NCBI GenBank assembly: GCA_017484205.1 | Contig: JAFUTO010000032.1 | Location: forward strand, 77,027 to 141,026 | Reading direction: 5' to 3' | DNA: 64,000 nt | DNA from: Bacilli bacterium | GTDB taxonomy: Bacteria; Bacillota_I; Bacilli_A; RF39; UBA660 | Shown: piece by piece, positions 6,397-27,369 of the stretch | Layout: every line of letters begins with the position of its first letter | Position numbering within the stretch: the first letter of the stretch is position 1 | Notes under the pieces: generated by a model | What the model was told of the DNA's origin: nothing | What the model saw: the letters and a program-made list of their open reading frames with translations, nothing else | Database searches by the model: none | Program-made: the position numbers and the translations under genes

Positions 6397-6450
6397 ATTA
6401 TTCTCCTTATAAGTAAATTATTAAAGTTATAAACATATTATGATATAGAG

Positions 6451-6717
6451 GTGTTTATGATTAATTTAATAAAAGAATATATTAATAAATTAGATAAAGG
6501 TAGCGTGAATACTTATTTAAATAATCAAGGTATACATCTAAATAGTAATGAACTTGATATAATATATAATCATCTTAAGAATAATTGGTATACATTTCTT
6601 TATGAAGATGATACCCCTATATTAAATGATATTAAAGAAAAACTAGATAATGATAATTATTTAAAACTACTTAATTTATATAAAAAGGCAAAAGAAAAAT
6701 ATAGTTTTTACCTATAA
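6451..6717 (+). CDS. hypothetical small protein
   Basis: ORF track only; GTG start; convergent with nfo. No motif recognised. Confidence 0.35.
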   Translation: MFMINLIKEYINKLDKGSVNTYLNNQGIHLNSNELDIIYNHLKNNWYTFLYEDDTPILNDIKEKLDNDNYLKLLNLYKKAKEKYSFYL

Positions 6718-7592
6718 TCTTCTCTTACCTCATCTAATAAATTACTATTAAAAATATTATCACGAATCATTTTTATTTCATGTTTATATGGTGGATATTC
6801 TTTATCTATATAAGGTGTTTCTAATATTTTAGGAACATCTTTTAATTTAGGATTATATATTATATTACTTAATGTATCAAAACCTATTGTTCCAAAACCA
6901 ATATTTTCATGTCTGTCTTTATGAGAATTTATAGGATTCTTACTATCATTAATATGTACACATCCTATGCGTTCTATTCCTATTATCCTATCAAATTCTT
7001 CTAACACTTCATCAAACTTACTCATATCATACCCAGCGTCATTCATGTGACATGTATCTAGGCATACCATTAATTTATTATTTAGTTTAACTCCATCTAT
7101 AATAGTTTTTATCTCTTCAAATGTTTTACCTAATTCACTACCTTTTCCTGCCATAGTTTCTAAACAAATAATTGGTTTCATATCACTTTCAATCACCATA
7201 TTTAACCCATCTATTATATTTTGAAGGCCTATTTCTACACCTAATCCTACATGACTACCTGGGTGCAAAACTATTTTAGATATGCCTAGTTCTTCACTTC
7301 TTCTAATCTCTTTTTTTAAAAAATCTACGGAAAAATCCATATTAGCTCTATTAGCTAAATTTATTATATATGGTGCGTGTATAATAACATTATTTATATC
7401 TATATTATTTTCTTTCATTAAAGCTTTTGCTTCTTCTGTTATATTTTTATCTATAGGTAATCTAAAAGTATTTTGAGGGGCACCTGTATAAAACATAAAT
7501 GTATTAGAATTATAAGTAAGTGCCTCTTTAACACTACCAAGTAATCCATCATTTTTATTATATCCTACATGACTTCCTATTATTAAATCCAT
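6708..7592 (-). CDS. nfo: deoxyribonuclease IV (endonuclease IV)
   Basis: IGSHVG...IIHAPYIINLA...VLHPGSHVG...CLETMAGKG...LDTCHMNDAGYD...HINDSKNP..SHKDRHENIG matches the Nfo TIM-barrel metal-binding motifs. Confidence 0.9.
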   Translation of the reverse strand: MDLIIGSHVGYNKNDGLLGSVKEALTYNSNTFMFYTGAPQNTFRLPIDKNITEEAKALMKENNIDINNVIIHAPYIINLANRANMDFSVDFLKKEIRRSEELGISKIVLHPGSHVGLGVEIGLQNIIDGLNMVIESDMKPIICLETMAGKGSELGKTFEEIKTIIDGVKLNNKLMVCLDTCHMNDAGYDMSKFDEVLEEFDRIIGIERIGCVHINDSKNPINSHKDRHENIGFGTIGFDTLSNIIYNPKLKDVPKILETPYIDKEYPPYKHEIKMIRDNIFNSNLLDEVREDYR

Positions 7593-7641
7593 AATATCAC
7601 CAATTTAATTATATAAAATCAAAAGAAAAAAGTCTATAAGA

Positions 7642-8061
7642 CTATTTAAGTGATAATATTTTTTTATATCCACCAAAACTTGCTTCTATTGAATTGCCAT
7701 TGGGATTAATTTTAGTTGTTACTTTCTTACAAACTAATTTATCATTCTCATCGCGAAGTAAAGTATATCCATCTGGGGCCTTATATATAATTTTTTCATT
7801 CAAAGAAAAAACAGTTGGAACAGTATATTCTTCTACCTCTTCATACTCTGGAATATATTCTATATCCGCATCTATTCCTTTATCAAGTAAATCTTTTTTC
7901 ATATGTTTCATTTGATGATCTATACCATTATTATGAACTATATTTAATGTTTTTGTAATTAAACATACATGTTCACTATGATCTATATTATTATCATATA
8001 TGCCTAATGAAATCGTACCTGTTAATAGTGCAATCCCTGCGTATACTTTTATTTTTTTCAT
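7642..8061 (-). CDS. hypothetical secreted protein
   Basis: ORF track; N-terminal signal-like segment MKKIKVYAGIALLTGTISLG. Confidence 0.4.
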   Translation of the reverse strand: MKKIKVYAGIALLTGTISLGIYDNNIDHSEHVCLITKTLNIVHNNGIDHQMKHMKKDLLDKGIDADIEYIPEYEEVEEYTVPTVFSLNEKIIYKAPDGYTLLRDENDKLVCKKVTTKINPNGNSIEASFGGYKKILSLK

Positions 8062-8070
8062 TTTTCCTCC

Positions 8071-8394
8071 TTAATCTATATGACTTGTAACTTTATCAAA
8101 GAAATCAACAATACCAGTTCTAATAAAACTACCTACCATATTTGACAATTCCAAACTCCTTCTAGATATATTATTAGAATAGTCTTTATCTTTTGTTACA
8201 TAATTATTAACATCTATCGCATTACCATTTCTAACATCTTCTTCAAACTTTTGTATACCATCTTCTGTTAAAACACTTTTTTGATAATTACTATATGCAT
8301 ATGATCCATTCATATCAGATAAATATATTGTGATATAAAAAAATAGTAAAGTAATAAGTATAAATTTAAATAAATTAGTTACTTTCTTTTTCAT
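8071..8394 (-). CDS. hypothetical membrane-anchored protein
   Basis: ORF track; single N-terminal TM (LFKFILITLLFFYITIYL); 20-nt overlap with the upstream spoIIP-like gene. Confidence 0.4.
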   Translation of the reverse strand: MKKKVTNLFKFILITLLFFYITIYLSDMNGSYAYSNYQKSVLTEDGIQKFEEDVRNGNAIDVNNYVTKDKDYSNNISRRSLELSNMVGSFIRTGIVDFFDKVTSHID

Positions 8395-9262
8395 CCAAAA
8401 CCTCCTTTATTATTGGAACTAGTATATTAATAGTGTTGTTTATCTCTTCCCATGTATTATTATTACTCCCTAATTCCAGTAGTATGGCACCTTTGTTTAA
8501 GTCTTGATTATAAGAGTCATGTTGATAGCTTTTATCTTTAATCATAATACCCTTAGAAACACCTGGATATTTTGCTTTTAATTTATCACTTATATTTGTA
8601 GCTAATTCTAAGTTATCCTTATATGTATCATATCTAACACCTTGGACAAATAATATTTTGGCATAATTAACATCATCAATAGTAACATATGAATACTTTC
8701 TTTCAACCGCATCTCTATGTAAGTCTATTACAAGTTCTATATCAGGATATATTTCTAATGCATTTATGACATATTTTCTACTAATGGCATACGCTTGATA
8801 AAAAGTGGAATAAGATGTATCTAAATATGGTGTTACTCTATTATCTTCGACAAGAGTTGCAATACCAACACTATCTAATTTTTCTTTCATTAATCTAGCT
8901 GCTTCACGTACACCTGCTACATTTTCCAGATAAGCTTCACCATCATGAGTATTATAAATATATACTTTTGGTGTTATTGATTTTGTAAATAATACATTAC
9001 TGGACTCATAAATTTCTTTTTCTACAACATTAAAAGGCGTATCTATTTCAAATATATATTTAAATATTCTATTAGATATATCATTATTGTTTTCAATATG
9101 AGGATTTATACTGGTAAGTAATGATGAAACTATATCTTTATTATCACCTGATAATGTTGGGACCTCTTTAATATATGAAATTCCTAAATAAATGATACCA
9201 ATTAGTAATATAAACCATATTATTTTTAAACTATATTTTTTCTTTGTTTTAAACTTTTTCAT
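8375..9262 (-). CDS. spoIIP: stage II sporulation protein P-like amidase
   Basis: N-terminal TM, then VYIYNTHDGEAY ... IDLHRDA ... LLELGSNNNTWEE, resembling SpoIIP signatures (IYHTH..E.Y, D.HRD, E.G). Start moved to MKKFKTKKK. Confidence 0.65.
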   Translation of the reverse strand: MKKFKTKKKYSLKIIWFILLIGIIYLGISYIKEVPTLSGDNKDIVSSLLTSINPHIENNNDISNRIFKYIFEIDTPFNVVEKEIYESSNVLFTKSITPKVYIYNTHDGEAYLENVAGVREAARLMKEKLDSVGIATLVEDNRVTPYLDTSYSTFYQAYAISRKYVINALEIYPDIELVIDLHRDAVERKYSYVTIDDVNYAKILFVQGVRYDTYKDNLELATNISDKLKAKYPGVSKGIMIKDKSYQHDSYNQDLNKGAILLELGSNNNTWEEINNTINILVPIIKEVLDEKESN

Positions 9263-9529
9263 CTTATCACCAATATAAGTATAGAACTTAGACTGCAATT
9301 ATTTTGTCTAAAAAAGAAATAGTGTAAAATTTTAGGAATATATTACCTTTTTTATTGTATTTGTTGCATGTACTTTGTTTACGTTTTATTTTTATAGATA
9401 AAATGATTATTTAATATATGAAATTTCATATATTATATTGGCAATTAAAAAAGAAAAAATATAATATTTTATTGCTTTTTTATTTGTTTTTTGTTAAAAT
9501 TATATATGTTTAAAGACGGAGGTGATATT

Positions 9530-9790
9530 ATGGCAAATATGAAGAACGCAAAAAAAGCTATTAAAGTTATCGAAAGAAAAAGAATTGAAAATAGAGATTA
9601 TGAAGCAAGTATGAAAACAGCTATGAAAAATGTTGAAAAAGCTGTAACAGCTAAAGATAAAGAAAAAGCGGAAAAAGAATTAAAAGTTGCTATTAAAAGA
9701 ATAGATAAAGCTGTAGCAGCTGGTGTTACAACTAAAAACTTCAGTGCACGTAACAAATCACGTCTTACTAAAAAAGTAAATGCAATGTAA
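9530..9790 (+). CDS. rpsT: 30S ribosomal protein S20
   Basis: MANMKNAKKAIKVIERKRIENRDYEASMKTAMKN... is S20-like; GGAGGTG SD 7 nt upstream of ATG 9530. Confidence 0.9.
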   Translation: MANMKNAKKAIKVIERKRIENRDYEASMKTAMKNVEKAVTAKDKEKAEKELKVAIKRIDKAVAAGVTTKNFSARNKSRLTKKVNAM

Positions 9791-9792
9791 TA

Positions 9793-9822
9793 AAATGTAG
9801 ATTATGTCTACATTTTTATTTT
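9793..9822 (+). terminator. intrinsic terminator of rpsT
   Basis: AAATGTAGA-ttatg-TCTACATTT followed by a T-rich run. Confidence 0.6.
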
Positions 9823-9853
9823 ATTTTTATGTATAATATAGTTAGGTGATTGT

Positions 9854-10732
9854 ATGAAAAAATTTATTAAAGCTTTAATTTTTGTAGGAATTATATATGC
9901 AATTGTTATGTATAGAGCATATATAGTTGAATATGCTGTTAGTTTTTATAATAGTCACAACAAAAATATAGTCACAAATAAATATACAAAAAATCAAAAT
10001 TTTGCATCTTTCCAAAGGACTAGTAACTATACTCCAAAAAATAAACAAGATTTAATTAACCTTATGTATACAATATTAGATAATGGGATGGATAACTTTG
10101 TATTTGCATGTTCAGCAAAATATGAAAACTGCGCTGATGATATGAAAGATATTGCAGAAAACGGGATGTTACAAGTTATAAACAACTATGTACATCCTTA
10201 TAATAGTTATAATGTACTTAATTATAGCATATATATGAATTTAGTTAATGTATCAATTGAAAAACTTTATAGTGAAAATGAAATAGCTTCAATAGACTCT
10301 AAAATAAACTTAATATCTAATTATATAATCACAAGTAACATGTCTGATTATGATAAAATTAGGGCATTTCACGACTATATTATAAACAATACCACTTATG
10401 ATGATTCTATAGATGATTTTGCTTCCCATAGAGCTTATAATGTTGTTATGAATGGAGTTGGAGTATGTGGTGGATATGCAGATACTATGGCTATTTTCTT
10501 AGAAAAGCTTCAAATCAAAAACTTTAAATTATCTAATGAGGAACATATTTGGAATGTATTATATTTTAATAATAACCTATATCATATTGATATGACATGG
10601 GACGATCCTATCACTCCTGATAAAAGTAACATGCTATTACACGATTACTTTATGATAACTAGTAAACAACTAATAGAATTGAATGATGAAAAGCATATAT
10701 TTGATGCAAATTTATACGTAGAATTAAAATAA
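9854..10732 (+). CDS. transglutaminase-like (papain-fold) domain protein, membrane anchored
   Basis: N-terminal TM. Catalytic-triad-like pattern GVCGGYADTMAIFLEKL ... EEHIWNVLYF ... HIDMTWDD is typical of the transglutaminase-core family. Confidence 0.65.
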   Translation: MKKFIKALIFVGIIYAIVMYRAYIVEYAVSFYNSHNKNIVTNKYTKNQNFASFQRTSNYTPKNKQDLINLMYTILDNGMDNFVFACSAKYENCADDMKDIAENGMLQVINNYVHPYNSYNVLNYSIYMNLVNVSIEKLYSENEIASIDSKINLISNYIITSNMSDYDKIRAFHDYIINNTTYDDSIDDFASHRAYNVVMNGVGVCGGYADTMAIFLEKLQIKNFKLSNEEHIWNVLYFNNNLYHIDMTWDDPITPDKSNMLLHDYFMITSKQLIELNDEKHIFDANLYVELK

Positions 10733-13038: not shown

Positions 13039-13407
13039 CTATTTTTCTATACATTCATTATTATATTTCAATATAAATTCCCCATTTTGGTAATTAACCT
13101 CAATAATATCATCACGCATATCATTTATGACATTATCAGGTATTTCTCCAGAATTTACTAAATCTTCTTTAGTAATACAATAAGTTGATCCTTCAATTTT
13201 ATAATAATAATTTGAATGATTGTTTAAATACTCTATAATTGTATATGTTTCAATTTCGCCTTTAAACCTTGAAAATTGTTTTATTATATTTTTAACATCA
13301 AAATGTCCTAATCCTAAAATAATAAGGTAAGTAACAATAATTATGGTAACTAATATTTTCAATACCATTTCAAAATCAATATTATTCACATGTGTACGAA
13401 AATTCAT
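13039..13407 (-). CDS. hypothetical single-TM protein downstream of the pseudopilin genes
   Basis: ORF track; TM LKILVTIIIVTYLIILGL; overlaps the upstream pilin gene end. Confidence 0.35.
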   Translation of the reverse strand: MNFRTHVNNIDFEMVLKILVTIIIVTYLIILGLGHFDVKNIIKQFSRFKGEIETYTIIEYLNNHSNYYYKIEGSTYCITKEDLVNSGEIPDNVINDMRDDIIEVNYQNGEFILKYNNECIEK

Positions 13408-13735
13408 AATTCATTACACCATTTGTTATATTAACTTTTACACATGAGTTGTTAGTTACACTTTCATTATTTTGACTTTCAATAAAAGTAGAATTTATTT
13501 TATTGTTTTCAATTAATGTCTTAACTGTTACTGTATAGTTTCCATTAGCAGGTAAAATAAAATTTTCATTTAAATATTCTTCAGATGCTGAAAATAGTAT
13601 TTTTTCTGTTGCTGAATCAATATTACCGTTTGTATTTTCAACCATTTTAATTATTGATATAGATAAAATCGTAGCTATAACTGCCAATATAACAATAACA
13701 CCTAGTAATTCAATTAAAGTAAATCCCTTTTTCAT
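13382..13735 (-). CDS. type IV pilin/pseudopilin (prepilin N-terminal cleavage/methylation domain)
   Basis: MKKGFTLIELLGVIVILAVIA is the class III signal (G/FTLIE); start moved to this Met. Confidence 0.75.
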   Translation of the reverse strand: MKKGFTLIELLGVIVILAVIATILSISIIKMVENTNGNIDSATEKILFSASEEYLNENFILPANGNYTVTVKTLIENNKINSTFIESQNNESVTNNSCVKVNITNGVMNYEFSYTCE

Positions 13736-13736
13736 A

Positions 13737-14081
13737 TTACCCCTCCACACAAGTTTGTTCTATATCAAATTGATATCTATTAGATCCATATGAAGCCATC
13801 ACACAATATTCACTAAATTTATCCATAATACTTTCGTCTAATAATTCTTCATCTACTAATGTGCGTAACTTAATATGGTGAGTACTATTATCATTGAATT
13901 TTTTAGGATTATTTTGAACATAGAGATTAGCAGCTGCATATACAGTTTCATATAATTGCTTATCCATCTTTTCTCCATTATTATTTATATTATTCATAAT
14001 AGTTGGTACAGAAATAGCTATGATTGCACCTAATAAAGCTATAACTGCAAGTAATTCAATTAAAGTAAATCCTTTTTTCAT
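13737..14081 (-). CDS. type IV pilin/pseudopilin (prepilin N-terminal cleavage/methylation domain)
   Basis: MKKGFTLIELLAVIALLGAI is a class III signal; start moved to this Met. Confidence 0.75.
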   Translation of the reverse strand: MKKGFTLIELLAVIALLGAIIAISVPTIMNNINNNGEKMDKQLYETVYAAANLYVQNNPKKFNDNSTHHIKLRTLVDEELLDESIMDKFSEYCVMASYGSNRYQFDIEQTCVEG

Positions 14082-14126
14082 ATTATCACCTATATTAATT
14101 ATACCAACACAAAACAAAAAAAACAA

Positions 14127-14335: not shown

Positions 14336-14815
14336 TTATAATAAGTCCTTAAGTTTTGCTAACTCAGGGTTTTCTCTTTTTTCTTCCTCTTTTATCAATT
14401 TCCAACCATCACCAGATAATTCAATATCTTTGGCATCAGGTGAAACAACCTTTGATGGAATTTCCATTAATATATTTTCCCATATTATCGGCAAAATATC
14501 AAGACTATTTTCTATTTTTTTGTCAATTTCTTCTAAATCTTCTAACATTTCTTCAAGATTTCCATCAACATTTATATCAAATGGATAATCTACTGGTACT
14601 AAAGTTAATGAACAAGGTAACACCATTATTCCTTTAATTTCTAGATTTATAATTAAATTATTTAAATTATTCTTAGTTATATTACCTTTTATAGATACAT
14701 TATCAAGGTTAATTATATCTGTTCCCTTTAACTCTTCCTTATCAAAAGAATATGTCTTATCAATAAGAATTTCTTTATCAATATTATTTAATAATCTTTT
14801 TAAATCAAATTCCAT
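14336..14815 (-). CDS. yceD: YceD/DUF177 family protein
   Basis: Conserved position upstream of rpmF; LPCSLTLVPVDYPF and the acidic C-terminal half are typical of DUF177. Confidence 0.75.
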   Translation of the reverse strand: MEFDLKRLLNNIDKEILIDKTYSFDKEELKGTDIINLDNVSIKGNITKNNLNNLIINLEIKGIMVLPCSLTLVPVDYPFDINVDGNLEEMLEDLEEIDKKIENSLDILPIIWENILMEIPSKVVSPDAKDIELSGDGWKLIKEEEKRENPELAKLKDLL

Positions 14816-14851
14816 AATATCACCAGCACGATAATTATATATTAAATTTAC

Positions 14852-15655
14852 TTATTTTGCAAGTAATAATTTATTTATTTCAACTTTAGGATCAGAATAT
14901 TCTAAATAGTAGCATTCAAGATTTATATTATATTTTTTTAGTTGACTTAAGAATTTTTTAAGATAGTAGTTTGAACACATCATTTTTTCAGGAATTATTA
15001 TAGTTGGAATTATATTATATGTATCATTTGCATTATAATTCCCCCATTCTTCAGTAAATGATCTTATAAAGTATTTGTTACTATTTTCTTCTTTTTTCAT
15101 TATGCAAAAGTAATATGTTAATATTTCTGTAATAGGGCTTAATAATGTTTCATTAGAATCAATATCTTTTAATTCACATATAAATATATTATTACTTTTA
15201 TTAAATATAATATCTATTTTTTCAGAAGCACCTTCTCTTCCCTTTTCTCTAGTAATTGGAGATTGATAATATCTAGCATAGCCTAAATCATTATGTTCTT
15301 TCTTTTCATATTTTTCAAATATTCTAGCTTCACATTTTCTTTCGCCAGGGCCCATTTCATCTGCTTTTTTTCTTGTTTCTTCTTCACCGCGATATTGTTT
15401 TATACCATCTATCTCTTTCCCCGTATTACTTTTATTTTTTTTAGCTGCTAGATCTTCTTCATAAAGGCCAGTGCCATCATCAATAATTTGTTTTACATAA
15501 GCAGCAAAGTATTCATCATTGGAAACTAATTCTTTTATTTTTTCACTTTCACTTATTTTTTTATCTTTTTTTAACAAATAGCATCCATGATCTTTATATA
15601 AATATTTATGTTCTTCAAAATTTCTACCTCTATTAACTAAGTCTTTATATTCCAT
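14852..15655 (-). CDS. hypothetical protein with PD-(D/E)xK nuclease-like core (island gene 5)
   Basis: EKIDIIFNKSNNIFICELKDIDSNETLLSPITEILTYY fits the D...(E)xK pattern of the NucS/DUF91-type restriction-endonuclease fold. The N-terminal half is charged, with no recognisable domain. Confidence 0.4.
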   Translation of the reverse strand: MEYKDLVNRGRNFEEHKYLYKDHGCYLLKKDKKISESEKIKELVSNDEYFAAYVKQIIDDGTGLYEEDLAAKKNKSNTGKEIDGIKQYRGEEETRKKADEMGPGERKCEARIFEKYEKKEHNDLGYARYYQSPITREKGREGASEKIDIIFNKSNNIFICELKDIDSNETLLSPITEILTYYFCIMKKEENSNKYFIRSFTEEWGNYNANDTYNIIPTIIIPEKMMCSNYYLKKFLSQLKKYNINLECYYLEYSDPKVEINKLLLAK

Positions 15656-15664
15656 AATTTCCTC

Positions 15665-16849
15665 CTATAAATTTATTATATCATAATCTTTTATTTCTAA
15701 TATATTATCAAAGATATTTTTATTACTACTGTCTGTGTGTATTATTAAAGTTTTTTTAGGCTTTACCATTTTATTTAATAATTTCATGGCATCTATATCT
15801 GCATGACCTGATGTATGCAAACTAAATATATCTATATTATTATTTTTTATAAACTCTAGAAACTCGATTGTATTTTCTTCATTTTTATATCCATCCCACA
15901 TCGAATATATTAAGCATGCTTTATCAATTAGATTTTTATTTTTTAATAGTTTTATGTCTTCTATCATAGATGTTTTTACTTCCATTGCATATTTCTTGCC
16001 AAACTTAGAACTAGTTTTAATATTTAAATAATTATTTTTAAATTCTCTACTTTTATATTTGTATAAAATAGGTTTCCATACAAATATACTTTTATAGTCT
16101 ATAATAATATTTAAATTCAGTATTTCATTTAAATGATATGTAAAAGGTGTCATAATATATTTTTTATTAGTTTTTAAAGAAGCTTTAATTAATGATATAG
16201 TCCTATCAATATTAGTAGTGGAGCTTAAAAAAAATACTTGATTATATTTTTTCATAATATCAGCTAAATCATTTTCTAATACATATTCAGATTTATATTT
16301 TTCACTGCTTCTAGATAAAGATGTTCCCTCTGTAATAAGTAAATCCACACTTCCAACTTTTTCTAGTGTTTTTCTAAAAAGGCATCCTTTTCTCCCGTGA
16401 TTCCTATAATCACCAGTATGTAATATTTTTTTGTCTTCAGCCTCTATTAGAAACATGCATGAATTATAAGCAGAATGATCTACTAAATAAGGTGTAATAG
16501 TCATACCCTTAACTTTAATCTTTTCTTCAAATTTGAATGTCCTAACACTTCGATTAATTTTTTGCCTATTACAAAAATCACATGTTAATTTATATATAAG
16601 TAATGACTTTTCTTCTACATAGACATCTATATCATTATTAATTGTATTTATTAGGCCTATATGATCTATATGACTATGGGTAATAAACACTGCATCATAA
16701 ATACTCTTGCCTTTATTGAGACCTTCTAATTCAAATTCACCACCATCTAGGTCTTCACCAAAATCTACGATTATTTTACTTTTTTTACTTGTTATTTCAG
16801 TTATACAACCACCTATTTGTTTAGTTCCTTTAATTATTCTTACTTCCAT
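15665..16849 (-). CDS. metallo-beta-lactamase fold, beta-CASP/RNase J-like nuclease (island gene 4)
   Basis: IGGCITEI...IIVDFGED, HxHxDH (ITHSHIDHIG), VDHSAY, HTGDYR, LITEGT and HTSGHA match MBL motifs 1-4 plus beta-CASP-type motifs. Start moved to MEVRIIKG (AGGA 7 nt upstream). Confidence 0.65.
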   Translation of the reverse strand: MEVRIIKGTKQIGGCITEITSKKSKIIVDFGEDLDGGEFELEGLNKGKSIYDAVFITHSHIDHIGLINTINNDIDVYVEEKSLLIYKLTCDFCNRQKINRSVRTFKFEEKIKVKGMTITPYLVDHSAYNSCMFLIEAEDKKILHTGDYRNHGRKGCLFRKTLEKVGSVDLLITEGTSLSRSSEKYKSEYVLENDLADIMKKYNQVFFLSSTTNIDRTISLIKASLKTNKKYIMTPFTYHLNEILNLNIIIDYKSIFVWKPILYKYKSREFKNNYLNIKTSSKFGKKYAMEVKTSMIEDIKLLKNKNLIDKACLIYSMWDGYKNEENTIEFLEFIKNNNIDIFSLHTSGHADIDAMKLLNKMVKPKKTLIIHTDSSNKNIFDNILEIKDYDIINL

Positions 16850-18497
16850 TATTAATCCTTTCATAATACAAATATAAATTTCTAATTTTATTTATTATAT
16901 TAGCTTTAGGTATGAAATTCATATCCAAACTATTAATTACCAAATAAATGCTTACTTCATCTATTATGTCTTTTAATTTATTATAAACATCATCTAGTAT
17001 AACCATATGATATTTATCAGCATATGCTTTAACTAATTCATCCATATTAAGATTAGATATATCTGATAAATCTTCGCCTTCTCTTAACACATTTAACACA
17101 TCTATATTATTGTAAAATTTATGTTTATCTATATCTTTTATATTCTCATTAGGTAATATATTTATCTTAATCATATCACTTAAGTCATGATAATCTATCA
17201 ATGTGCCATGATTATTTAAAGCAGTATAGTTTAAATAATTATCTGGTATAACTAAAAAGCTATTATATAAAGTATCATTATATACTGGTATGTCTATTAT
17301 ATATTTAGCTATTAATTCTTTATCATTATTTGAAAGTTTTATTTTATTTAATATTTCATAATGTCTTATTATCCTATATGCATCTTGAATATTTACCTTA
17401 TGCCCATAATTACATTTAACTAAATTATAGTTTTCCACCATATAGAAAAATAATTTTTTAAAATAAAAATTATCATTAACTTTTAAAACTAGATTAGGAA
17501 TTTTGCTAAAGAATAATTCATAAGGCAAATTATAAGGATCAATATTTGTTATACCTAAGACGAATGCAACTAATGAATTATTAATATAATCATCTATTTC
17601 ATAATATTCATTGTTATCTTTTAGAAAATTAGTAATATTAATTAGCATTTCATAAAAATAAGTATAATTTAACTCTTTTATTAAACTTAATTCTTCCTTT
17701 AATCTATTAATGGTTTTTTCACTCGGATTTTTGTATTTTTCTTTAAATTTTTCATATACTAATTTTTCTAAATAATCGTAATTGCCTTTATAATTAAAAT
17801 CATGATTAGTATCAATATAGTCAATCATATTCAATAACTTATTAGAATTATTAATTACTATTTTTTCATCATTAAAAATTTTTAATGTCTCTAATGTATC
17901 CATATAACATCTAATCTCTGGATTAGTTTTAATATGTCTATAGTAATTAATTACTTTTTTAGCTAATAATTCATCACTATTTAAAGCATTAGGTACATTA
18001 GAATATACGACTAATTTATTTTTAAAGTCAATATCTAACTTTTTATTAATTTCAATATAATCAAATATTGATAAATCAATGTCAATATCTTCATCATTTA
18101 AAATAAAACCTATAATTAGATTATTCCTTAAATTAATTATTTCATCAAGTGGAATTTTTTTATTATATATATTTGTATAAATATCCAATATTTTATTTAA
18201 ATTATATACACCATCATTATTTTTAAGTATTAAGTTTATTTCATACTCCTTATTGTCTATGATAGTAGTTATTTCTACACCATAACCTATTTTATATTTT
18301 TTAAATCTATCATCTTTATTACATAATTCTTTATATATATTTTCTATCTTATAAAAAGAATAATTAGTATCTTTATCAATAAAAATTATCCCTTTCTCAT
18401 TATTTTCTAATGAGTCCATTATAATTGTCTCTACATCAATTGTAGATTCATAGTCAAAACTATATTTTGTTTTTGCATGTACTTCTACTTTATTCAT
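16830..18497 (-). CDS. decayed DNA polymerase III alpha (DnaE/PolC) N-terminal-like protein: degenerate PHP domain (island gene 3)
   Basis: VEVHAKTKYSFDYES compares with PHP motif I (veLHlHTkyS.lDG; second His is Lys here). IIFIDKDTNYS compares with aiTDHgn. INRLKEELSLIKELNYTYFYEML...NNSLVAFVLGITNIDPYNLPYELFFS compares with RL..EL..I...gf..YFLiv...GSLVAY.LGIT.iDPl.y.LlFERF. The PDIDID catalytic site is replaced by PNLVLKVN. Only 555 aa. Confidence 0.5.
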   Translation of the reverse strand: MNKVEVHAKTKYSFDYESTIDVETIIMDSLENNEKGIIFIDKDTNYSFYKIENIYKELCNKDDRFKKYKIGYGVEITTIIDNKEYEINLILKNNDGVYNLNKILDIYTNIYNKKIPLDEIINLRNNLIIGFILNDEDIDIDLSIFDYIEINKKLDIDFKNKLVVYSNVPNALNSDELLAKKVINYYRHIKTNPEIRCYMDTLETLKIFNDEKIVINNSNKLLNMIDYIDTNHDFNYKGNYDYLEKLVYEKFKEKYKNPSEKTINRLKEELSLIKELNYTYFYEMLINITNFLKDNNEYYEIDDYINNSLVAFVLGITNIDPYNLPYELFFSKIPNLVLKVNDNFYFKKLFFYMVENYNLVKCNYGHKVNIQDAYRIIRHYEILNKIKLSNNDKELIAKYIIDIPVYNDTLYNSFLVIPDNYLNYTALNNHGTLIDYHDLSDMIKINILPNENIKDIDKHKFYNNIDVLNVLREGEDLSDISNLNMDELVKAYADKYHMVILDDVYNKLKDIIDEVSIYLVINSLDMNFIPKANIINKIRNLYLYYERINNGSKNN

Positions 18498-18500
18498 AAA

Positions 18501-18881
18501 TTATCTCCATTCTATTATATATTTATTTCCTTCTACCCTACTTTTTTGAAGTGGATTTTTGAAATCTTTTCTAGGTACATATGGTGGTATAAAATTTGAT
18601 TCTGCGTCTGTTCTAAACACTAAATCAATACTCCATATACCTTCTTCACCATTTAGTGTATCAATCATTAAATTATTAAAATTAGAATAATTCTTTTTTA
18701 AATAATCTAAATCTAATTCTATATATAAATACTTCATTTCAAAACCATTACCATATATTTGATATTTAACACCAAATGGAATATATCTATATGAATAGAT
18801 ATATTTACCGGGGATAATGATATATTCATAATCCCATTCAATTTTAATATACTTTATAGATTTACTTTTAATATATTTCAT
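18501..18881 (-). CDS. hypothetical 126-aa protein (island gene 2, first gene of the 4-gene operon)
   Basis: ORF track; AGGAGGGA SD 7 nt before the ATG; ends 3 nt before the next gene. Confidence 0.45.
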   Translation of the reverse strand: MKYIKSKSIKYIKIEWDYEYIIIPGKYIYSYRYIPFGVKYQIYGNGFEMKYLYIELDLDYLKKNYSNFNNLMIDTLNGEEGIWSIDLVFRTDAESNFIPPYVPRKDFKNPLQKSRVEGNKYIIEWR

Positions 18882-18998
18882 AATATCCCTCCTTTGTTAT
18901 ATGAAATAAAATTAATAATTATTAAATTGTCAAAGAACAAGATGGTATCTCCATCTGATATACACTATATCATATGTTTTTTTACTTTTTTTTAAACG

Positions 18999-19026
18999 AC
19001 AAAAAAATATAAGAGTAACTCTTATA
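18999..19026 (-). terminator. intrinsic terminator after the HTH gene
   Basis: Palindrome ATAAGAGT-a-ACTCTTAT (19009-19025), followed on the minus strand by a T7 run. Confidence 0.55.
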
Positions 19027-19051
19027 TTTGAACGCATACACCTATTTTCAA

Positions 19052-19651
19052 CTATTTAGAAAAATACCACTCATTAATTAGATAATCATAACCAACATTA
19101 TGATAAAGTGTATTTAAATCATGCATATACCTTTGAATAGTTCGTTCATTCATATGCAGATCTTTCACAATGTCAGATGTTTTTCTAGTTTTATATTGTT
19201 TTGTATATTCATATAAAATATCTAATTTTTCTTTCTTGTTTTTATTGAATTTAATCGGTTTTTTCTCACTTTCTACTTCCATCTTATATTCATCCCAATT
19301 TACACCATAGCCATACGATAAATCACAATGCAAATCATCTTCTCCTATCGTTTCAATCTTAAACCATTTATTTTCAAAACAATCATTTCGATAAGATTTA
19401 TTATAAATAACTACCCTTACAAACTTGTTAAATATTTTTCGATACTTTTTATCCAATTCCATAGGTGATTTATTATCTTTATTATTAATTATTATCATAT
19501 AACCTTGATAAACTGATGCTTCATTAATTTTATTAACGTAATGTACTTTTTGACTTTCATAGTATTCTAGTGATAAAGAAGGAATTGGAACAAGATCTTT
19601 TTCTACTCCAGTAAAACCAACTATAACAACATTCTTTTTAGCTTTATTCAT
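19052..19651 (-). CDS. hypothetical protein with C-terminal HTH (island gene 1)
   Basis: C-terminal TRKTSDIVKDLHMNERTIQRYMHDLNTL resembles the HTH_11/DeoR-type helix-turn-helix (..S.RTI.R.i..L). The N-terminal 140 aa are unassigned. Confidence 0.45.
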   Translation of the reverse strand: MNKAKKNVVIVGFTGVEKDLVPIPSLSLEYYESQKVHYVNKINEASVYQGYMIIINNKDNKSPMELDKKYRKIFNKFVRVVIYNKSYRNDCFENKWFKIETIGEDDLHCDLSYGYGVNWDEYKMEVESEKKPIKFNKNKKEKLDILYEYTKQYKTRKTSDIVKDLHMNERTIQRYMHDLNTLYHNVGYDYLINEWYFSK

Positions 19652-19718
19652 AAATATACCTCTTTATAATTATACCATTTTATCTAATTTTATGATATAT
19701 TAACTATGAGGTGATACT

Positions 19719-20843
19719 ATGACTATTGGTATTATTGCAGAATACAACCCTTTTCATAATGGGCATTTATATATGATAAATAAAATTAAAGAAATGTATC
19801 CTAATTCCACTATAGTATGTGTGATGAGCGGAAACTTTACTGAACGTGGGGATGTTTCTATCATAAATAAATGGAAAAAAACCGAAATAGCTTTAAACTA
19901 TGGTGTTGATTTAGTTATCGAATTACCTTTTGTCTATGCATCTCAATCAAGTGATTACTTTGCTTATGGCGCAATTAAAATACTAGATAGCTTAAAAGTT
20001 GATAAATTAGTATTTGGATCTGAAACTAATAATATAGAGATATTTAATAAGTTAGTAGATATACAATTAAATAATAAAGAATATGATAAGTTAGTTAAAG
20101 AATATATGGACTCTGGATTAAACTATCCTACTTCGATGTCTAAGGCTTTAAAAGATATTATAGATATTAAAATAGAGAAGCCTAATGACTTATTAGGACT
20201 ATCTTATATTAAAGAAATTAAAAAACAACATAGTAATATTGAAACTATATCTATCAAAAGAGAAAATGATTATAATAGTTTAGATTTAGATAGTGACATA
20301 GTATCTGCATCTGCCATTAGGAATGGTTTATTAAATAATATTGATGTAAAAAAGTATGTACCTGAATTAACATATAAATATTTAGATAAGTTACATTTTA
20401 ATAATAATTATTTTAAATTACTAAAGTATAGGATATTAACTACTGATATAGCTATATATCAAGGGGTTGATGAAGGATTAAAATATAGAATACTTAAGTA
20501 TATAAATGAATCTAATACATTAGATGAATTAATTTCTAAAGTAAAAACTAAAAGATATACATATAATAAACTTAATAGAATGTTTATTCATATCTTATGT
20601 AGTTTTACAAAAGAAGAAGCATCACAAATAGATATTGAATATATTAGAGTATTAGGATTTAGTGATATTGGTAGAAAATATTTAAATAAAGTTAAGAAAG
20701 AATCTAACATACCTATTATTACAGGATATTCTAATATAGATAGTAAAGTATTAGATATAGAATATCGAGTTAATAGTATCTATGCTTTAGATGATGAAGA
20801 AGAATTAATCCAAAGAGAATTAAAAGGACCAATTAAGTTATAA
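19719..20843 (+). CDS. tmcAL: tRNA(Met) cytidine acetate ligase (YlbM/UPF0348 nucleotidyltransferase)
   Basis: MTIGIIAEYNPFHNGHLYMI...VMSGNFTERG...KWKKTEIAL..GVDLVIELP is the TmcAL/YlbM signature. Confidence 0.8.
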   Translation: MTIGIIAEYNPFHNGHLYMINKIKEMYPNSTIVCVMSGNFTERGDVSIINKWKKTEIALNYGVDLVIELPFVYASQSSDYFAYGAIKILDSLKVDKLVFGSETNNIEIFNKLVDIQLNNKEYDKLVKEYMDSGLNYPTSMSKALKDIIDIKIEKPNDLLGLSYIKEIKKQHSNIETISIKRENDYNSLDLDSDIVSASAIRNGLLNNIDVKKYVPELTYKYLDKLHFNNNYFKLLKYRILTTDIAIYQGVDEGLKYRILKYINESNTLDELISKVKTKRYTYNKLNRMFIHILCSFTKEEASQIDIEYIRVLGFSDIGRKYLNKVKKESNIPIITGYSNIDSKVLDIEYRVNSIYALDDEEELIQRELKGPIKL

Positions 20844-21240: not shown

Positions 21241-21322
21241 TTGACATATTTTATGAAATATCGTATAATCTAATTACTGAGGAGACTTGGAACACTTTGG
21301 TCCATGTACTCCTCTTTTATTA
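21241..21322 (+). ncRNA. candidate small transcription unit 3
   Basis: TTGACA (21241-21246), 17 nt, then TATAAT (21264-21269). Hairpin GAGGAG...CTCCTC (21279-21314) follows, plus TTTTATTAT. It abuts the stop codon of the convergent ORF 21320..21850. Confidence 0.25.
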
Positions 21323-21850
21323 TCTTTTATAATATAAGACAACATTGTCATTCTTATCCAACAAAATAACTTGTTTTATTTTTATTCGTTTACCAGTTGC
21401 AAATATCCTATTAATTTCATGAACTATATATAATATATCTAAATTAGTTTTTCTTTGATGCAAAATTAAATTATAAGTTGGATATTCTGCTTTATGCATT
21501 ATATTATCAATGGTATTTTTACTACTTCCATCTATTCCCTTATAATCCCAAAGTTCATTTGTATCTTTTACCCAGAAATCAGGAGTTTTAACATTTTGAA
21601 TGTGTGTTTTTGGATTAAGAAAAAATTTAAAACCAGTTTTATTTTCCATTATTTTTTGATATTTTATTTCTTCTGATATAATGTCTCTAGGGTCATAATA
21701 AGCATCCAAATATACATTCTTATCTTTGTCCATCGCATAAATCAATCTTCGTTCTATAGAATCACTAGACTTTGAATGTTTTCTAATATCATCAGTTAAG
21801 TCAATATACTTACTAACTAAATTAATCATATATTCCCATACTACATTCAC
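21320..21850 (-). CDS. hypothetical protein, possible stand-alone PD-(D/E)xK (toxin-type REase fold) domain
   Basis: VKTPDFWVKDTNELWDYKGIDGSSKNTIDNIMHKA has a PD...(D/E)xK spacing reminiscent of CdiA-CT/Tox-REase type nuclease domains. No neighbour on the same strand. Confidence 0.3.
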   Translation of the reverse strand: MNVVWEYMINLVSKYIDLTDDIRKHSKSSDSIERRLIYAMDKDKNVYLDAYYDPRDIISEEIKYQKIMENKTGFKFFLNPKTHIQNVKTPDFWVKDTNELWDYKGIDGSSKNTIDNIMHKAEYPTYNLILHQRKTNLDILYIVHEINRIFATGKRIKIKQVILLDKNDNVVLYYKR

Positions 21851-24316: not shown

Positions 24317-24445
24317 TGGAGTAATCTTTTCAATTCCACCCATATATGGTTGCAATACCTTAGGTACATTAACTGAACCATCTTCATTATAGTTATTTTC
24401 AATTAAAGCAATTAATCCTCTTGGAGTAGCTACTACAGTATTTCT
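24308..24445 (-). pseudogene. serS: displaced 3-prime fragment of seryl-tRNA synthetase (last ~45 codons)
   Basis: [37 protein letters not shown] matches the SerRS C-terminus (..A.gRtliAilENyQ.eDGSv.iPevLrPYMGG.e.I). No upstream serS sequence follows; the frame runs into the recombinase gene instead. Confidence 0.7.
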
Positions 24446-26246
24446 CGGTGTTGCAATTTGCACCAAAGGAGTCGGATTTGATACTATCATTCTGATCAAC
24501 TTCTTTCTTATTCACTTGTATAATTTTTTCCTCTTCAGAGGAAGCTGAAGATTGTTGCTTTTTTATTTCTTCAGCATATTTGTCTATAACGGTTTGTTTG
24601 CTATATGATTTACGGGGTAATGCTTGTTTTACTTCTTTGCCATTTCTAAATATGAATTTGATTACATTTGGATTTAACACATCATTTTCATCTTTTTCTC
24701 CGATTATAATTTTGTCTGTGATGCTATTAAACACTACTGAATCAAATCCTGATAAAATATTTTTCTTTTTGAATATGGATTTAAAATCCACAATTCTTTT
24801 TTTAATATCATTTTCATCTTTCATGACAGTTTTGTACTCATCCAATTTTTCTTCAAGTAAAAGAATTTTATTTTTTAATTCTTCACTTTTTTGCACATAT
24901 ATATTTGAGTCTATTATTCCATCTAACTTCATATCTACAAGGTTAGATTCTCTATCTTTGAGAGTGATAATTTGTTCTCTAATATTTGACATTTCCTTAT
25001 CATAGTTGTTTCCTGATAGTATCTCTTCCATTGTATCTAATAATTGATTAATAATTATTGTATGATTCTCACATACACTATTGTATGCTTGAACAAATGC
25101 AGATTCAATTATTGACTCTTTGACATTTCCAATATTTTGACAATAATCATCATTTCTTCTTTGAAATGTTCTACACGCCCAAGCAACTCTTCTAGGTTGA
25201 CCTTCTTTGTGTGGCGACCAAGATCTTCTAATAAACTTTTGACCACAACATCCACAATCTATCTTACTACTAAATGGATACATGTGGCTTTCTTTATTAA
25301 GTTTATTTTTTTCTTTATACTCTCCTGTTCGCTTATCTAACAAAGCATTTGCTTGATCCCAAATTTCTCTTTCTATAATAGGAACATGATGATTCTTTGT
25401 ATAATATTTATCTTTTTCACCATGATTTATTATTTTCTTTTTTGAAATAGGATCACTTGTATAAGTTTTACCAGTTAATAAGTCACCACAATATTTTTCA
25501 TTTCTTATCATTCTTGCAACGACTGTACTTGACCACATCTTGTTAGTTGGACTAGGAATTTTTTTATTATTTAAAGTTCTTGCAATTCTGGCTGTTCCTA
25601 GACCATCTTCAATATATAATCTATATACTTCTCTAACTACTTCAGCTTCTTCTTCACAAATAACTAACTCTTCTTTATCTTGATCATATCTATAACCATA
25701 AGGAGCATAGTGTCCTACTAATTCTCCCCTTTTCATTTTCATTCTTGCTCCAAGTGCTACACTTGAGGATATTGTTGCACTACCTTGTTGAGCAAGTGCT
25801 GATAAGACAGTAAGTAATATTTCACCTTGCATTTCCATAGTGTTTATATTTTCTTCTTCAAAATATACTGCAACACCATGTTCTTTTAATAAACGAATAT
25901 ATTTTAAAATATCTACTGTATTTCTACCGAATCTTGAAATTGATTTAACAAGTATCATATCAATTTTACCTGCTAAAGCATCATCTATCATTCTTTTAAA
26001 ATTTACTCTTTTAAAAACTTGTGTTCCTGAAATAGCTTCATCTGCATAAATATCAACAAATTCCCAATCTTCATTTTGTCTTATCTTTTGCTTATAGTAT
26101 TTTATTTGTGATTCGTAACTGGTCTTTTGTTCTTCAGTACCTGTACTTACACGACAATATGCACACACTCTCAATAATTTTTTTATTAGACCTTTTATGC
26201 CATGTGCTTTTTTTGGATTAGCTGCTATAACTTTAACATTACCCAA
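24399..26246 (-). CDS. large serine recombinase (integrase of the ICE)
   Basis: Catalytic [11 protein letters not shown]...[20 protein letters not shown], the recombinase domain, zinc ribbon (CGCCGQKF...WACR) and a long coiled coil. TTG start after GGAG. The last ~20 codons run across the att junction into serS sequence, so the exact C-terminus is junction-derived. Confidence 0.9.
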
Positions 26247-26329
26247 TAAAATCTCCTTTCCTCAATCAAAGTTTATAGCAAAACTTCCTATTCAATTATA
26301 ACACACATTTGGGCAGTTTTAGAATCAAA

Positions 26330-26563
26330 TTAAACGATTTTGTGTTCTAATTTGATTTTTGCCTTAATTAATGAATATTCTCGTTCTGTTATTTTATTTA
26401 ATTTTAACAACTCATTTAATAATGCCAACTTCATACTATACGCCAATAAATTATCACAACTCTTTTTGTTAGTATTTTTCTTATCTATAAATATCTCTCC
26501 TTTTTGGTACGACAAAAAAAAGGATACAATTTTGTATCCAACAGTTAATCCAAAAAGAATCAA
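26330..26563 (-). CDS. hypothetical small protein
   Basis: ORF track; N-terminal hydrophobic segment plus a C-terminal LNKITEREYSLIKAKI segment (SHOCT-like?). A mirror ORF on the plus strand is equally long, so coding status is uncertain. Confidence 0.3.
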   Translation of the reverse strand: MILFGLTVGYKIVSFFLSYQKGEIFIDKKNTNKKSCDNLLAYSMKLALLNELLKLNKITEREYSLIKAKIKLEHKIV

Positions 26564-26576
26564 TCATAGCTAAAGG

Positions 26577-27290
26577 TTATTGTTCATTATTAACTTGAAT
26601 GTATGCCTTTTTAAAGTTTCTCATTTCATTTCCAACATCATAACCAGTCATAAACTTATTGAATTTAGGAAAATCAGTTTTTTCCATAAATAAAGTTCTA
26701 TTATCTAATTTAACAATTAGTTCTGTTAAAACATCAACTTGTTCTGTAAATTCTAGTTTTTTAAAATCAGCAATTATTTTTCTACTTGTATCGTTACAGA
26801 TATTTTCATCATTTTGCGTTAATACTAATTTCCCTGCTTTTTTAATTCTATCATTATTTAACATTACGAATAAAAAGTCAGATATTTCAGTTCCTAATGA
26901 GTCATCAAATCCCATAACAGAAGGTTTAAAAACTACACCTTTACCATTACTTATTGATTTGTTGCTCCATTTTTTAAATAAATCTATACATACTTCAAGT
27001 CTATCAGAATATTTAACATTTTCTATTCTTTTAATATATTCAATAGTTTTATCTGAAGCATCTTGAATAAATCTAAAATTTTCACCTTTCATTAGAATAA
27101 TATCTCTCAAAAATATATCATCAGGTTTCTTTCCAAATAGTGTAGCTATTTCAACAGCTCTTTCGTATGAAAGAATTGTCTTACCTACTTCTATTTGTCT
27201 ATAACCACTTTTACTTAAATCAAACATTGAACCAATATCAGTACAAGTGTATCCTTGTTCTTCTCTTTCCCTTCGTAAATCTTCTAGCAT
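26577..27290 (-). CDS. XRE-family HTH protein with ~170-aa C-terminal domain of unknown function
   Basis: GYTCTDIGSMFDLSKSGYRQIEVGKTILSYERAVEIATLFGKKPDDIF is an XRE/Cro-type HTH. Confidence 0.65.
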   Translation of the reverse strand: MLEDLRREREEQGYTCTDIGSMFDLSKSGYRQIEVGKTILSYERAVEIATLFGKKPDDIFLRDIILMKGENFRFIQDASDKTIEYIKRIENVKYSDRLEVCIDLFKKWSNKSISNGKGVVFKPSVMGFDDSLGTEISDFLFVMLNNDRIKKAGKLVLTQNDENICNDTSRKIIADFKKLEFTEQVDVLTELIVKLDNRTLFMEKTDFPKFNKFMTGYDVGNEMRNFKKAYIQVNNEQ

Positions 27291-27369
27291 ATAATCATCT
27301 CACTTTCTATAAAAGTAATTTTAACTAATTATATTATATCAAATTTTCATTAAAAAATCATTGTTTTTC

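Follow-up and report, generated by a model that had tools for sequence, protein, structure and literature searches.

A predicted nuclease cassette of gut Bacilli carries a conserved, apparently non-catalytic derivative of the replicase PolC

The ImuA-ImuB-DnaE2 mutasome uses an inactive polymerase of the Y family, ImuB, as a scaffold. Some beta-CASP nucleases act in DNA repair, and Cas14, of type VII CRISPR, shows that members of this group can be immune effectors as well. PHP-type domains also occur in defence: Ppl, which Gao and colleagues are said to have described in 2020, is reportedly a PHP-containing defence system of a single gene. Here we analyze a 4.8-kb cassette that combines a PolC-derived protein with a beta-CASP nuclease, a PD-(D/E)xK-like protein and a regulator-like protein, and that lies in 64,000 nucleotides of DNA from a Bacilli bacterium (contig JAFUTO010000032.1, positions 77,027 to 141,026; hereafter the window). 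The cassette matches no described system and appears to be of a new kind. A 2026 census of bacterial polymerases lists only DnaE1-3 and PolC in the C family, with no inactive group (PMC12926913), and in the Ophion system a PHP-type protein, OpnB, is accompanied by radical SAM (rSAM) and phosphoribosyltransferase (PRTase) partners (bioRxiv 10.1101/2025.09.30.679545).

In the window, which has a G+C content of about 24%, five co-directional genes on the minus strand (14852-19651) sit between tmcAL (19719-20843, plus strand; PF05636, E = 8e-121) and yceD (14336-14815; PF02620, E = 7e-17), the latter followed by rpmF. In the direction of transcription they encode F1, a regulator-like protein of 199 amino acids (aa; 19052-19651); a 126-aa protein (18501-18881); iPolC, the name we give here to the 555-aa PolC-derived protein (16830-18497); a beta-CASP metallo-beta-lactamase (MBL) nuclease of 399 aa (15665-16864), or of 394 aa from its likely start at 16849; and F6, a PD-(D/E)xK-like protein of 267 aa (14852-15655). 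The last four are tightly packed, with a 3-nt gap, a 35-nt overlap (20 nt when MBL begins at the homologue-supported Met at 16849) and a 9-nt gap. Contigs from different samples and different sources share this arrangement, which is therefore no artefact of assembly. An earlier note on this DNA, made from the letters and open reading frames (ORFs) alone, had reported the five ORFs at these coordinates and with this packing, and had seen in them a polymerase-like protein without its catalytic residues, a beta-CASP MBL nuclease with an HxHxDH motif and a D...ELK motif in the 267-aa protein, all of which we recovered. The protein that it described as a decayed Pol III alpha/PHP-like one can be narrowed to the PolC type. 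Our comparisons establish the cassette as mobile, patchily distributed and selected, with two intact nuclease signatures, a predicted dead derivative of PolC and a putative dedicated regulator.

The central protein, iPolC, has 71 clusters of homologues, and a profile of its family could be aligned in four collinear segments with two PolC structures, 9qpc (E = 9e-42) and 3f2b (E = 4e-33). The segments correspond to the N-terminal part of the PHP domain, to its C-terminal part together with the palm, to the fingers and to a C-terminal stretch present in long forms; the exonuclease insert is skipped. The parts recognized in iPolC are a PHP-like N-terminus, a palm and thumb/fingers. In Pfam, residues 241-331 matched Pol III alpha (PF07733, E = 7e-12), over only the first 95 positions of that model. 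Whereas PolC is essential and about 1,450 aa long, iPolC is accessory and mobile, measures 555-690 aa and lacks the N-terminal domains, the OB fold and the DnaQ exonuclease insert. Where PolC has its catalytic PDIDLNFS, the window protein has PNLVLKVN, and N335, V337 and N446 occupy the three catalytic positions. Among 69 homologues, position 335 is K, N, R or S and never D, position 337 is E, N, V or Q, and position 446, the Asp of LKLDILG, is Q, R, N, K or S; each of the 69 has lost all three catalytic carboxylates. The PHP site has changed as well, two metal-ligand His being invariant Lys (H7-x-K9, D41-K42) and one further His being lost. Around 40 positions are invariant, E5, H7, K9, D41, K42 and D43 among them, and pairwise dN/dS (the ratio of nonsynonymous to synonymous substitution rates) between close orthologues is 0.15-0.27. 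As judged from its residues and substitution pattern, iPolC is a non-catalytic derivative of PolC that evolves under purifying selection.

Two of the systems introduced above resemble iPolC in part. Like ImuB, it appears to be a dead polymerase homologue kept by selection as a non-catalytic subunit, and its best partial match in NCBIfam is the 'error-prone DNA polymerase' DnaE2 (E = 2.5e-12, about 95 residues), weak as this is: its NCBIfam scores of 45.7, 43.7 and 33.6 bits compare with cut-offs of 939, 1260 and 1806. Unlike ImuB, it belongs to the C family and not the Y family, its partners are nucleases, and it has neither an active polymerase partner nor a RecA-like ImuA; no active DnaE2, ImuB or ImuA/RecA-like gene was found in the window or in 24 related loci. 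With Ppl and OpnB the likeness is a PHP-type domain in a defence context. However, iPolC matches no PADLOC model for Ppl, its PHP site is degenerate, its partners differ, and two more distant versions of the polymerase (on plasmid pCY186 and viral contig L119, described below) have no PHP domain.

The MBL protein has kept its catalytic motifs. Pfam matches were Lactamase_B_2 (E = 1e-13) and RMMBL (E = 5e-4), the sequence contains an HSHIDH motif, and D34, H63xH65xD67H68, D174, D220, H354 and H376 are invariant in the family; H149 is invariant in 20 gut-Bacilli sequences and nearly so when a Butyrivibrio member is added. The nearest structure is 2az4, the uncharacterised EF2904 (E = 2.6e-13), with RNase J next. 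With EF2904, RNase J and Cas14 it shares the MBL plus beta-CASP fold and the full set of motifs. It scores far under the family cut-offs, however, reaching 61 bits against 820 for RNase J in NCBIfam and 31.9 bits against 800 for Cas14, the latter over the N-terminal 70 residues only. At 399 aa against about 555 for RNase J, it ends after the beta-CASP/MBL core and lacks the RNase J C-terminal domain. Its dN/dS is about 0.16. We assign MBL to a separate beta-CASP subfamily whose catalytic motifs are all intact.

F6 carries the signature ID...ELK. In its family (n=12) G125, D148, E161, K163, S167, E177, T180 and Y181 are invariant, which includes the D, E and K of the motif. F6 had no Pfam match, and a profile search of the PDB with the F6 alignment returned nothing significant; one member of the family matched BsuBI_PstI_RE weakly (E = 8e-4). 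An AlphaFold2 (AF2) model from eight sequences predicted the order alpha-beta-beta-beta-alpha-beta, with D148 on strand 2 and ExK on strand 3, at a predicted local distance difference test score (pLDDT) of 36. We classify F6 as a predicted PD-(D/E)xK-like nuclease with an intact motif.

For F1, a family of 154 clusters of homologues, the structural prediction was firmer (AF2 pLDDT 86, predicted template modelling score 0.81). Foldseek aligned the model with 4zmr, a full-length response regulator (E = 6.6e-4), and with 5hev, 6wsh and 1srr, the matches including LiaR, EutV, Spo0F and the pseudo-receivers of KaiA/CikA. Its winged helix-turn-helix (wHTH) superposed on CapW (7tb6, probability 1.0) and BrxR (7qfz, probability 0.98) over about 66-68 residues, so that the structure search proposed in the earlier note yielded both a response-regulator fold and a CapW/BrxR-like wHTH. 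By sequence, the match to HTH_11 was weak (E = 0.045), the predicted structure confirming the winged helix; a profile search of the PDB with the F1 alignment gave nothing significant. According to the model, F1 consists of an N-terminal CheY-like pseudo-receiver and a C-terminal winged helix. We call the first domain a pseudo-receiver because no Asp is conserved as phospho-acceptor at the end of strand 3 in 34 sequences; D67 and R71 in helix 3 are invariant, as are residues of the HTH. In architecture F1 resembles response regulators of the NarL/LiaR type, from which it differs in this missing Asp, and no histidine-kinase family was among the recurrent Pfam matches of the module's neighbours. 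Like BrxR and CapW, it has a superposable wHTH and is encoded directly upstream of an effector operon from which it seems to be transcribed apart; unlike them, it has no WYL or WCX domain (Pfam gave no WYL match) and places the sensor before the HTH. In the distant versions on pCY186 and L119, its place is taken by WYL and XRE regulators, respectively.

The spacer between F1 and the operon has a conserved order of elements, all read here on the minus strand. A hairpin resembling an intrinsic terminator, ATATAAGAG-TTA-CTCTTATAT with a T-run (19001-19027), follows F1 at the same position in most other module loci and corresponds to the terminator that had been placed after this gene at 19009-19025. 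Overlapping its end is the motif TTTTTTGTCGTTTAAAA (18990-19006), which occurs as one exact copy in the window and, either as such or as the near-identical TTTTTTGTCGTTTA, in ten other loci (our numbers L007, L011, L013, L014, L017, L020, L021, L028, L029 and L110); its conservation makes it a candidate for an operator or an UP-like element in the promoter of the operon. At a spacing of 27 nt, counted from TTTTTTGTCGTTTA in the window, L007 and L011, comes the extended -10 element of the nuclease operon, TGATATAGT (18964-18972), with TGnTATAGT, TATGCT or TATAAT at the same place elsewhere. In the window, L003, L110 and L111 there follows a leader hairpin, AGATGG-AGATA-CCATCT (18940-18956; from a terminator scan, perhaps an attenuator), and then TTGTTCTTTGACAATTT. 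F1 itself has a possible extended -10, TGGTATAAT (19669-19677), a consensus match only; this element is part of the insert and precedes the start codon by 17 nt. With this conserved spacer, F1 is an integral component despite its separate transcription, and it is probably the regulator of the nuclease operon.

Database searches with the complete cassette support its novelty. PADLOC-DB v2.0.0 gave nothing meaningful for the five window proteins, the best hit being a CARF model, matched in its HTH part (E = 0.0012). No system-level match for the cassette came from PADLOC, PHROGs, NCBIfam or Pfam; PADLOC and PHROGs had no informative match for iPolC, MBL or F6, and PADLOC, PHROGs and NCBIfam nothing system-level or informative for F1, the 126-aa protein or F6. 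We found no description of the gene combination in the full-text literature, the searchable part of which is incomplete. The earlier impression that no named defence, repair or toxin-antitoxin system fits the genes is borne out by these searches. We rate the cassette as new because iPolC, MBL and F1 fail the defining tests of the families closest to them, no PADLOC model covers it and the literature search turned up no description.

We then compared the insertion site with that of relatives, using the tmcAL protein to scan metagenome contigs, which gave 80 loci. In the six closest relatives (L030, L031, L032, L035, L037 and L098; tmcAL identity 75-83%), yceD lies divergently only 81-88 nt from tmcAL, and in about 30 more distant loci the gap is mostly 85-93 nt. 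None of the five cassette genes was present at the tmcAL loci of either group. Because yceD directly adjoins tmcAL in the relatives, the 4.8 kb represent an insertion, and the possibility raised earlier, that the genes are universally conserved at this position in the clade, does not apply. When both junctions were aligned with the spacers of L030, L031 and L035, which have no insert, the inserted DNA came to lie at about 14866-19686 (minus strand, about 4.82 kb). There was no recombinase gene inside it, and comparison with these three empty sites revealed no inverted repeats and no clear target-site duplication. F6 ends 36 nt from yceD, and its stop codon lies inside the native yceD-rpmF promoter, TTGCAA-17-TATAAT (14834-14862, minus strand; promoter scan 10/12), which is situated at the cassette boundary and is conserved in the same empty sites. 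The short distance and missing terminator pointed out in the earlier note are real, but since yceD keeps its own promoter directly after F6, the missing terminator carries less weight. Distant relatives have unrelated small insertions in the tmcAL/yceD gap: a 372-aa protein or HAD-like hydrolase in L053 (6755-7873), L055 (7126-7896) and L060 (1009-2742), with an added GNAT-like gene in L060. The gap is a recurrent insertion point that tolerates inserts. We considered whether it might be a dedicated defence hotspot and found no support for this, as the single genes in distant relatives are HAD-like, GNAT-like or unassigned.

These data bear on a host function in DNA repair or damage tolerance, in which the nucleases would trim damaged ends on a polymerase-like scaffold, in the manner of ImuA-ImuB-DnaE2 or of end processing by SNM1/Artemis. 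The partial DnaE2 match of iPolC, the repair enzymes among beta-CASP nucleases and the presence of fpg and an Exo_endo_phos gene within a few kb of the cassette would agree with such a role. Yet the DnaE2 match covers about 95 residues at 45.7 of the 939 bits called for, no locus contains an active polymerase, ImuA/ImuB, ligase or Ku, and the proximity of fpg is coincidental, as it adjoins tmcAL also in relatives without the cassette. Absence from the closest relatives and a place that varies by genome would also be unusual for a repair pathway. We regard this explanation as quite improbable.

Next, we asked which genes travel together, clustering the ORFs of 24 loci to define the conserved unit. 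It comprises F1, iPolC, MBL and one PD-(D/E)xK-like protein. F1 and iPolC are adjacent and co-directional in all 24, and every contig that is long enough also carries MBL and a PD-(D/E)xK-like gene; F1 lies inside the operon in L018 and L019, between iPolC and MBL. Depending on the locus, the PD-(D/E)xK-like gene belongs to the F6 family, to the related f34 family or to the F4/f12 family (350-515 aa, with an invariant GRID...LIELK). F4 aligned with F6 only weakly in hhalign (probability 17%, the ID...ELK region being aligned) and not significantly with a proteobacterial 320-aa partner of MBL (1.8%), so the placement of F4/f12 among PD-(D/E)xK-like proteins rests on motifs. Sister loci have optional extras, namely F5, a DnaQ-like remnant with a degenerate ExoI motif, F3, a helical-repeat protein with or without KOW, and second iPolC fragments. 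F5 lies between iPolC and MBL and reads LNIETTGF in L017 (10146-11141) and FLDLKDY in the others (L007, 12064-12795, and sister loci), which suggests that the exonuclease domain of PolC was split off and inactivated too. The window cassette is a minimal version plus a private 126-aa gene. The set proposed earlier, a four-gene operon with an HTH gene next door, holds for iPolC, MBL and the PD-(D/E)xK-like gene; the 126-aa gene drops out, extras and alternative PD-(D/E)xK-like genes appear elsewhere, and the HTH protein is not an outside neighbour but part of the unit.

The module is rare and patchy, with 17 loci in 185,579 species-representative genomes. All homologues of iPolC and F1 come from metagenomes or metagenome-assembled genomes labelled uncultured Bacilli, Candidatus Faecisoma or 'Clostridium sp.'. 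The 24 loci represent at least a dozen unrelated neighbourhoods. Directly upstream in L028 are Thoeris ThsA/ThsB, a C5-methylase and a MutH-like gene; downstream are an ApeA-like gene, a D12 methylase and an HNH gene in L007, a Schlafen/AlbA_2 gene in L029, and a tyrosine (phage) integrase with an SSB fragment in L027; and L003 has Bro-N and HTH_3 genes upstream. The 138 non-redundant neighbours of the module include three GmrSD, two D12 methylases, two integrases, an AriA-like protein and HEC-06, and matched 205 PADLOC families, whereas a control set of 134 proteins taken from tmcAL loci matched 111. The 25 most frequent PADLOC matches of the control are mainly cross-matches of HerA/FtsK and ABC proteins, with one or two methyltransferases and no GmrSD, D12, integrase, AriA-like or HEC-06. 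F1, iPolC, MBL and PD-(D/E)xK-like genes therefore recur together in variable, defence-rich or mobile places, as a co-occurrence check suggested in the earlier note had set out to learn.

We also considered a decaying remnant, a pseudogenised polymerase with hitch-hiking ORFs that have no present function. The lost catalytic residues of the polymerase and PHP sites, the nearly orphan 126-aa ORF and the lack in the window of components seen in sister loci point that way. All ORFs are intact, however, and dN/dS is low not only for iPolC (0.15-0.27) and MBL (about 0.16) but also for F1 (0.10-0.35). Each family has dozens of invariant residues, gene order, promoter and leader elements are conserved, and the trio of PD-(D/E)xK-like protein, MBL and dead polymerase is kept across two classes of Bacillota. 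We consider decay very unlikely indeed; like host repair, it fits the distribution and selection data poorly.

The second of these classes is Clostridia, represented by two more distant relatives of the cassette. On the Butyrivibrio proteoclasticus megaplasmid pCY186 (L113; NC_014390.1, about 116-146 kb), a co-directional block contains a WYL regulator, an F6-like protein (profile E = 2e-11; hhalign probability 88%) and an MBL with 32% identity over its full length (E = 6e-58). Downstream of MBL, beyond two small hypothetical genes and dnaX, are two dead Pol III alpha-like proteins, and the block also holds an AAA+ gene, a DnaA/Hda-like gene, an intact PolC, DnaB, a DnaC-like gene and Rep; McrBC lies upstream, and the WYL regulators number two. 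The other relative, L119 (IMG/VR UViG_3300045608_000323, 46% G+C), has at 6134-10429 the order XRE-HTH, F6/f34-like protein (E = 1.5e-8), MBL and a 426-aa PolC-like protein with palm and fingers and no PHP, which reads EPAIDLIIPSEY and has lost two of the three catalytic Asp. This block adjoins two serine recombinases, a 922-aa SF1-helicase/STAND-like protein, an HsdM fragment and a GH25 endolysin. PADLOC v2 gave no match for the plasmid versions of MBL, the PD-(D/E)xK partner or the dead polymerase.

MBL extends further than its partners. The subfamily is found alone on plasmids of five other genera, next to an Eco57I-like restriction-modification system and a GIY-YIG protein in Rhizobium, next to AddAB-like genes in Ochrobactrum, in Prevotella next to WYL and two DUF262/GmrSD genes together with a partner that hit PDC-S10, a candidate in PADLOC (E = 1e-68), as Tn3 cargo in Cereibacter, and also in Sphingomonas. 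In Bacteroidota and Alphaproteobacteria it is translationally coupled to a metallophosphatase matching PDC-S10 (L115, 8455-9024, on the plasmid of Prevotella sp. E2-28; L118, 7053-7697). On plasmids of Alpha- and Betaproteobacteria and Bacteroidota it is always accompanied by small uncharacterised partners.

The plasmid context makes a replication-linked role possible, and we weighed whether the module derives from an element-encoded replisome and serves the replication or maintenance of mobile elements, with the dead PolC and the nucleases processing intermediates, removing primers or competing with the host replisome for the plasmid or prophage; the window copy would then be a stranded or exapted fragment. 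Several observations would suit this origin. iPolC is PolC-derived and accompanied by a DnaQ-like remnant in sister loci, the F6-like and MBL genes of pCY186 share one block with dnaX, PolC, DnaB, a DnaC-like gene and Rep, and the SSB fragment with integrase of L027 and the two serine recombinases beside L119 belong to mobile surroundings. The window and most other loci, however, have no replicase, initiator, helicase or recombinase alongside, and a polymerase that is dead in every member cannot replicate anything. No relative of iPolC or F1 was found in 2.9 million viral contigs or 50,697 phage records, no phage record carried MBL, and one viral contig carried the MBL trio. Among plasmid records, pCY186 alone combined a full-length MBL homologue with dead Pol III alpha-like genes, three other iPolC matches being ordinary annotated polymerases, and its block itself includes McrBC and WYL regulators. 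On balance we find a replication or maintenance module unlikely, though it is the most serious rival of the reading that we prefer.

The reading that we prefer, and to which we would give an even chance, is that the cassette is an accessory, horizontally mobile and nucleic-acid-acting unit that constitutes a new nuclease-based defence against phages or plasmids, with the pseudo-replicase as sensor or scaffold. The look of a defence or foreign-DNA-processing module noted earlier holds for the accessory insertion and for the variable, defence-rich or mobile contexts; the defence function we infer from context. In a working model, F1, transcribed separately by virtue of the terminator after it, would control the operon promoter through the TTTTTTGTCGTTTA element and might respond to a signal sensed by its receiver-like domain. 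iPolC, which may keep the palm/thumb/fingers cradle and has a remodelled PHP pocket, would serve as a sensor or targeting scaffold that recognizes primer-template junctions or replication intermediates of invading DNA; alternatively, it could serve as a decoy to proteins hijacking the replisome of the host. The scaffold would then recruit or license the beta-CASP MBL nuclease, and MBL and the PD-(D/E)xK endonuclease would degrade the nucleic acid of the invader or, in an abortive mode, that of the cell itself.

Several points weigh against defence. No component matches a validated defence protein, and the PD-(D/E)xK fold of F6 is only putative, its AF2 model having a pLDDT of 36. Enrichment of defence genes in the neighbourhoods is qualitative and relative to one control set. 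The immediate neighbours of the cassette in the window are housekeeping genes, non-defence insertions use the same intergenic site in distant relatives, and the pCY186 copies sit inside plasmid replication genes (intact PolC, DnaX, DnaB, DnaC-like and Rep). Binding of iPolC to DNA or to a nuclease, and regulation by F1, we infer entirely.

A more specific version of the defence reading, which we put forward tentatively, is an immune class built on a pseudo-replicase, in which iPolC would guard or mimic the replisome, detect foreign replication or hijackers of PolC and license both nucleases, in some lineages together with the dead DnaQ-like exonuclease and the KOW/helical partners. Were this so, iPolC would be the first homologue of a C-family polymerase to have been recruited for immune sensing without catalysis. 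More generally, a defence function would imply a new sensing principle, in which a dead copy of the cell's own replicase recognizes invading replication or replisome hijackers, and a new family of beta-CASP effectors, one that extends well past the gut Bacilli. Whatever the function, iPolC represents a conserved, selected and, by its residues, catalytically inactive branch of the C family that is not listed in the 2026 census. The hosts are uncultured, small-genome gut Bacilli that have hardly been explored for immunity, and the cassette is directly testable, being 4.8 kb long with promoters of its own and clear targets for point mutants.

The 126-aa gene, which has a strong ribosome-binding site (AAAGGAGG), had been counted as a member of the island and is not in the conserved set: no other module locus encodes a homologue, and only two small ones were found among 1.84 billion representatives (P0201, 34% identity, E = 4e-10, and P0202). 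Nor did it match Pfam, PADLOC, PHROGs or NCBIfam. Its ORF and that of iPolC share a frame, with only TAA-TTT between them (18497-18503), and most iPolC homologues have about 687 aa, roughly the 126 and 555 aa together. We therefore considered a split or recoded gene and rejected it, since the homologues begin at the iPolC Met, their extra length consisting of an internal insert and a C-terminal extension. The 126-aa ORF is a separate gene, a lineage-specific add-on private to this window.

Other features of the window were noted in passing. Between tmcAL and fpg lies an ORF of 176 aa (21320-21850, minus strand) that has the C-terminal toxin domain of CdiA (Pfam E = 4e-11) and no obvious delivery domain. 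Since fpg is within about 10 nt of tmcAL in the closest relatives L030, L031 and L035, this toxin-like orphan gene represents a second small insertion. A few kb from the cassette, at 24399-28104 (minus strand), are genes for a large serine recombinase (615 aa), an HTH_3 protein and a sortase; these may be part of an integrated element, and we found no link between them and the cassette. Rfam returned nothing at gathering score over the whole 64 kb (no tRNA, rRNA, riboswitch or leader), despite the many ribosomal and housekeeping genes. Directly downstream of rpmF, at 13039-14126 (minus strand), lie three ComG-type pseudopilin-like genes with an N-terminal KGFTLIELL motif, which are kept in close relatives.

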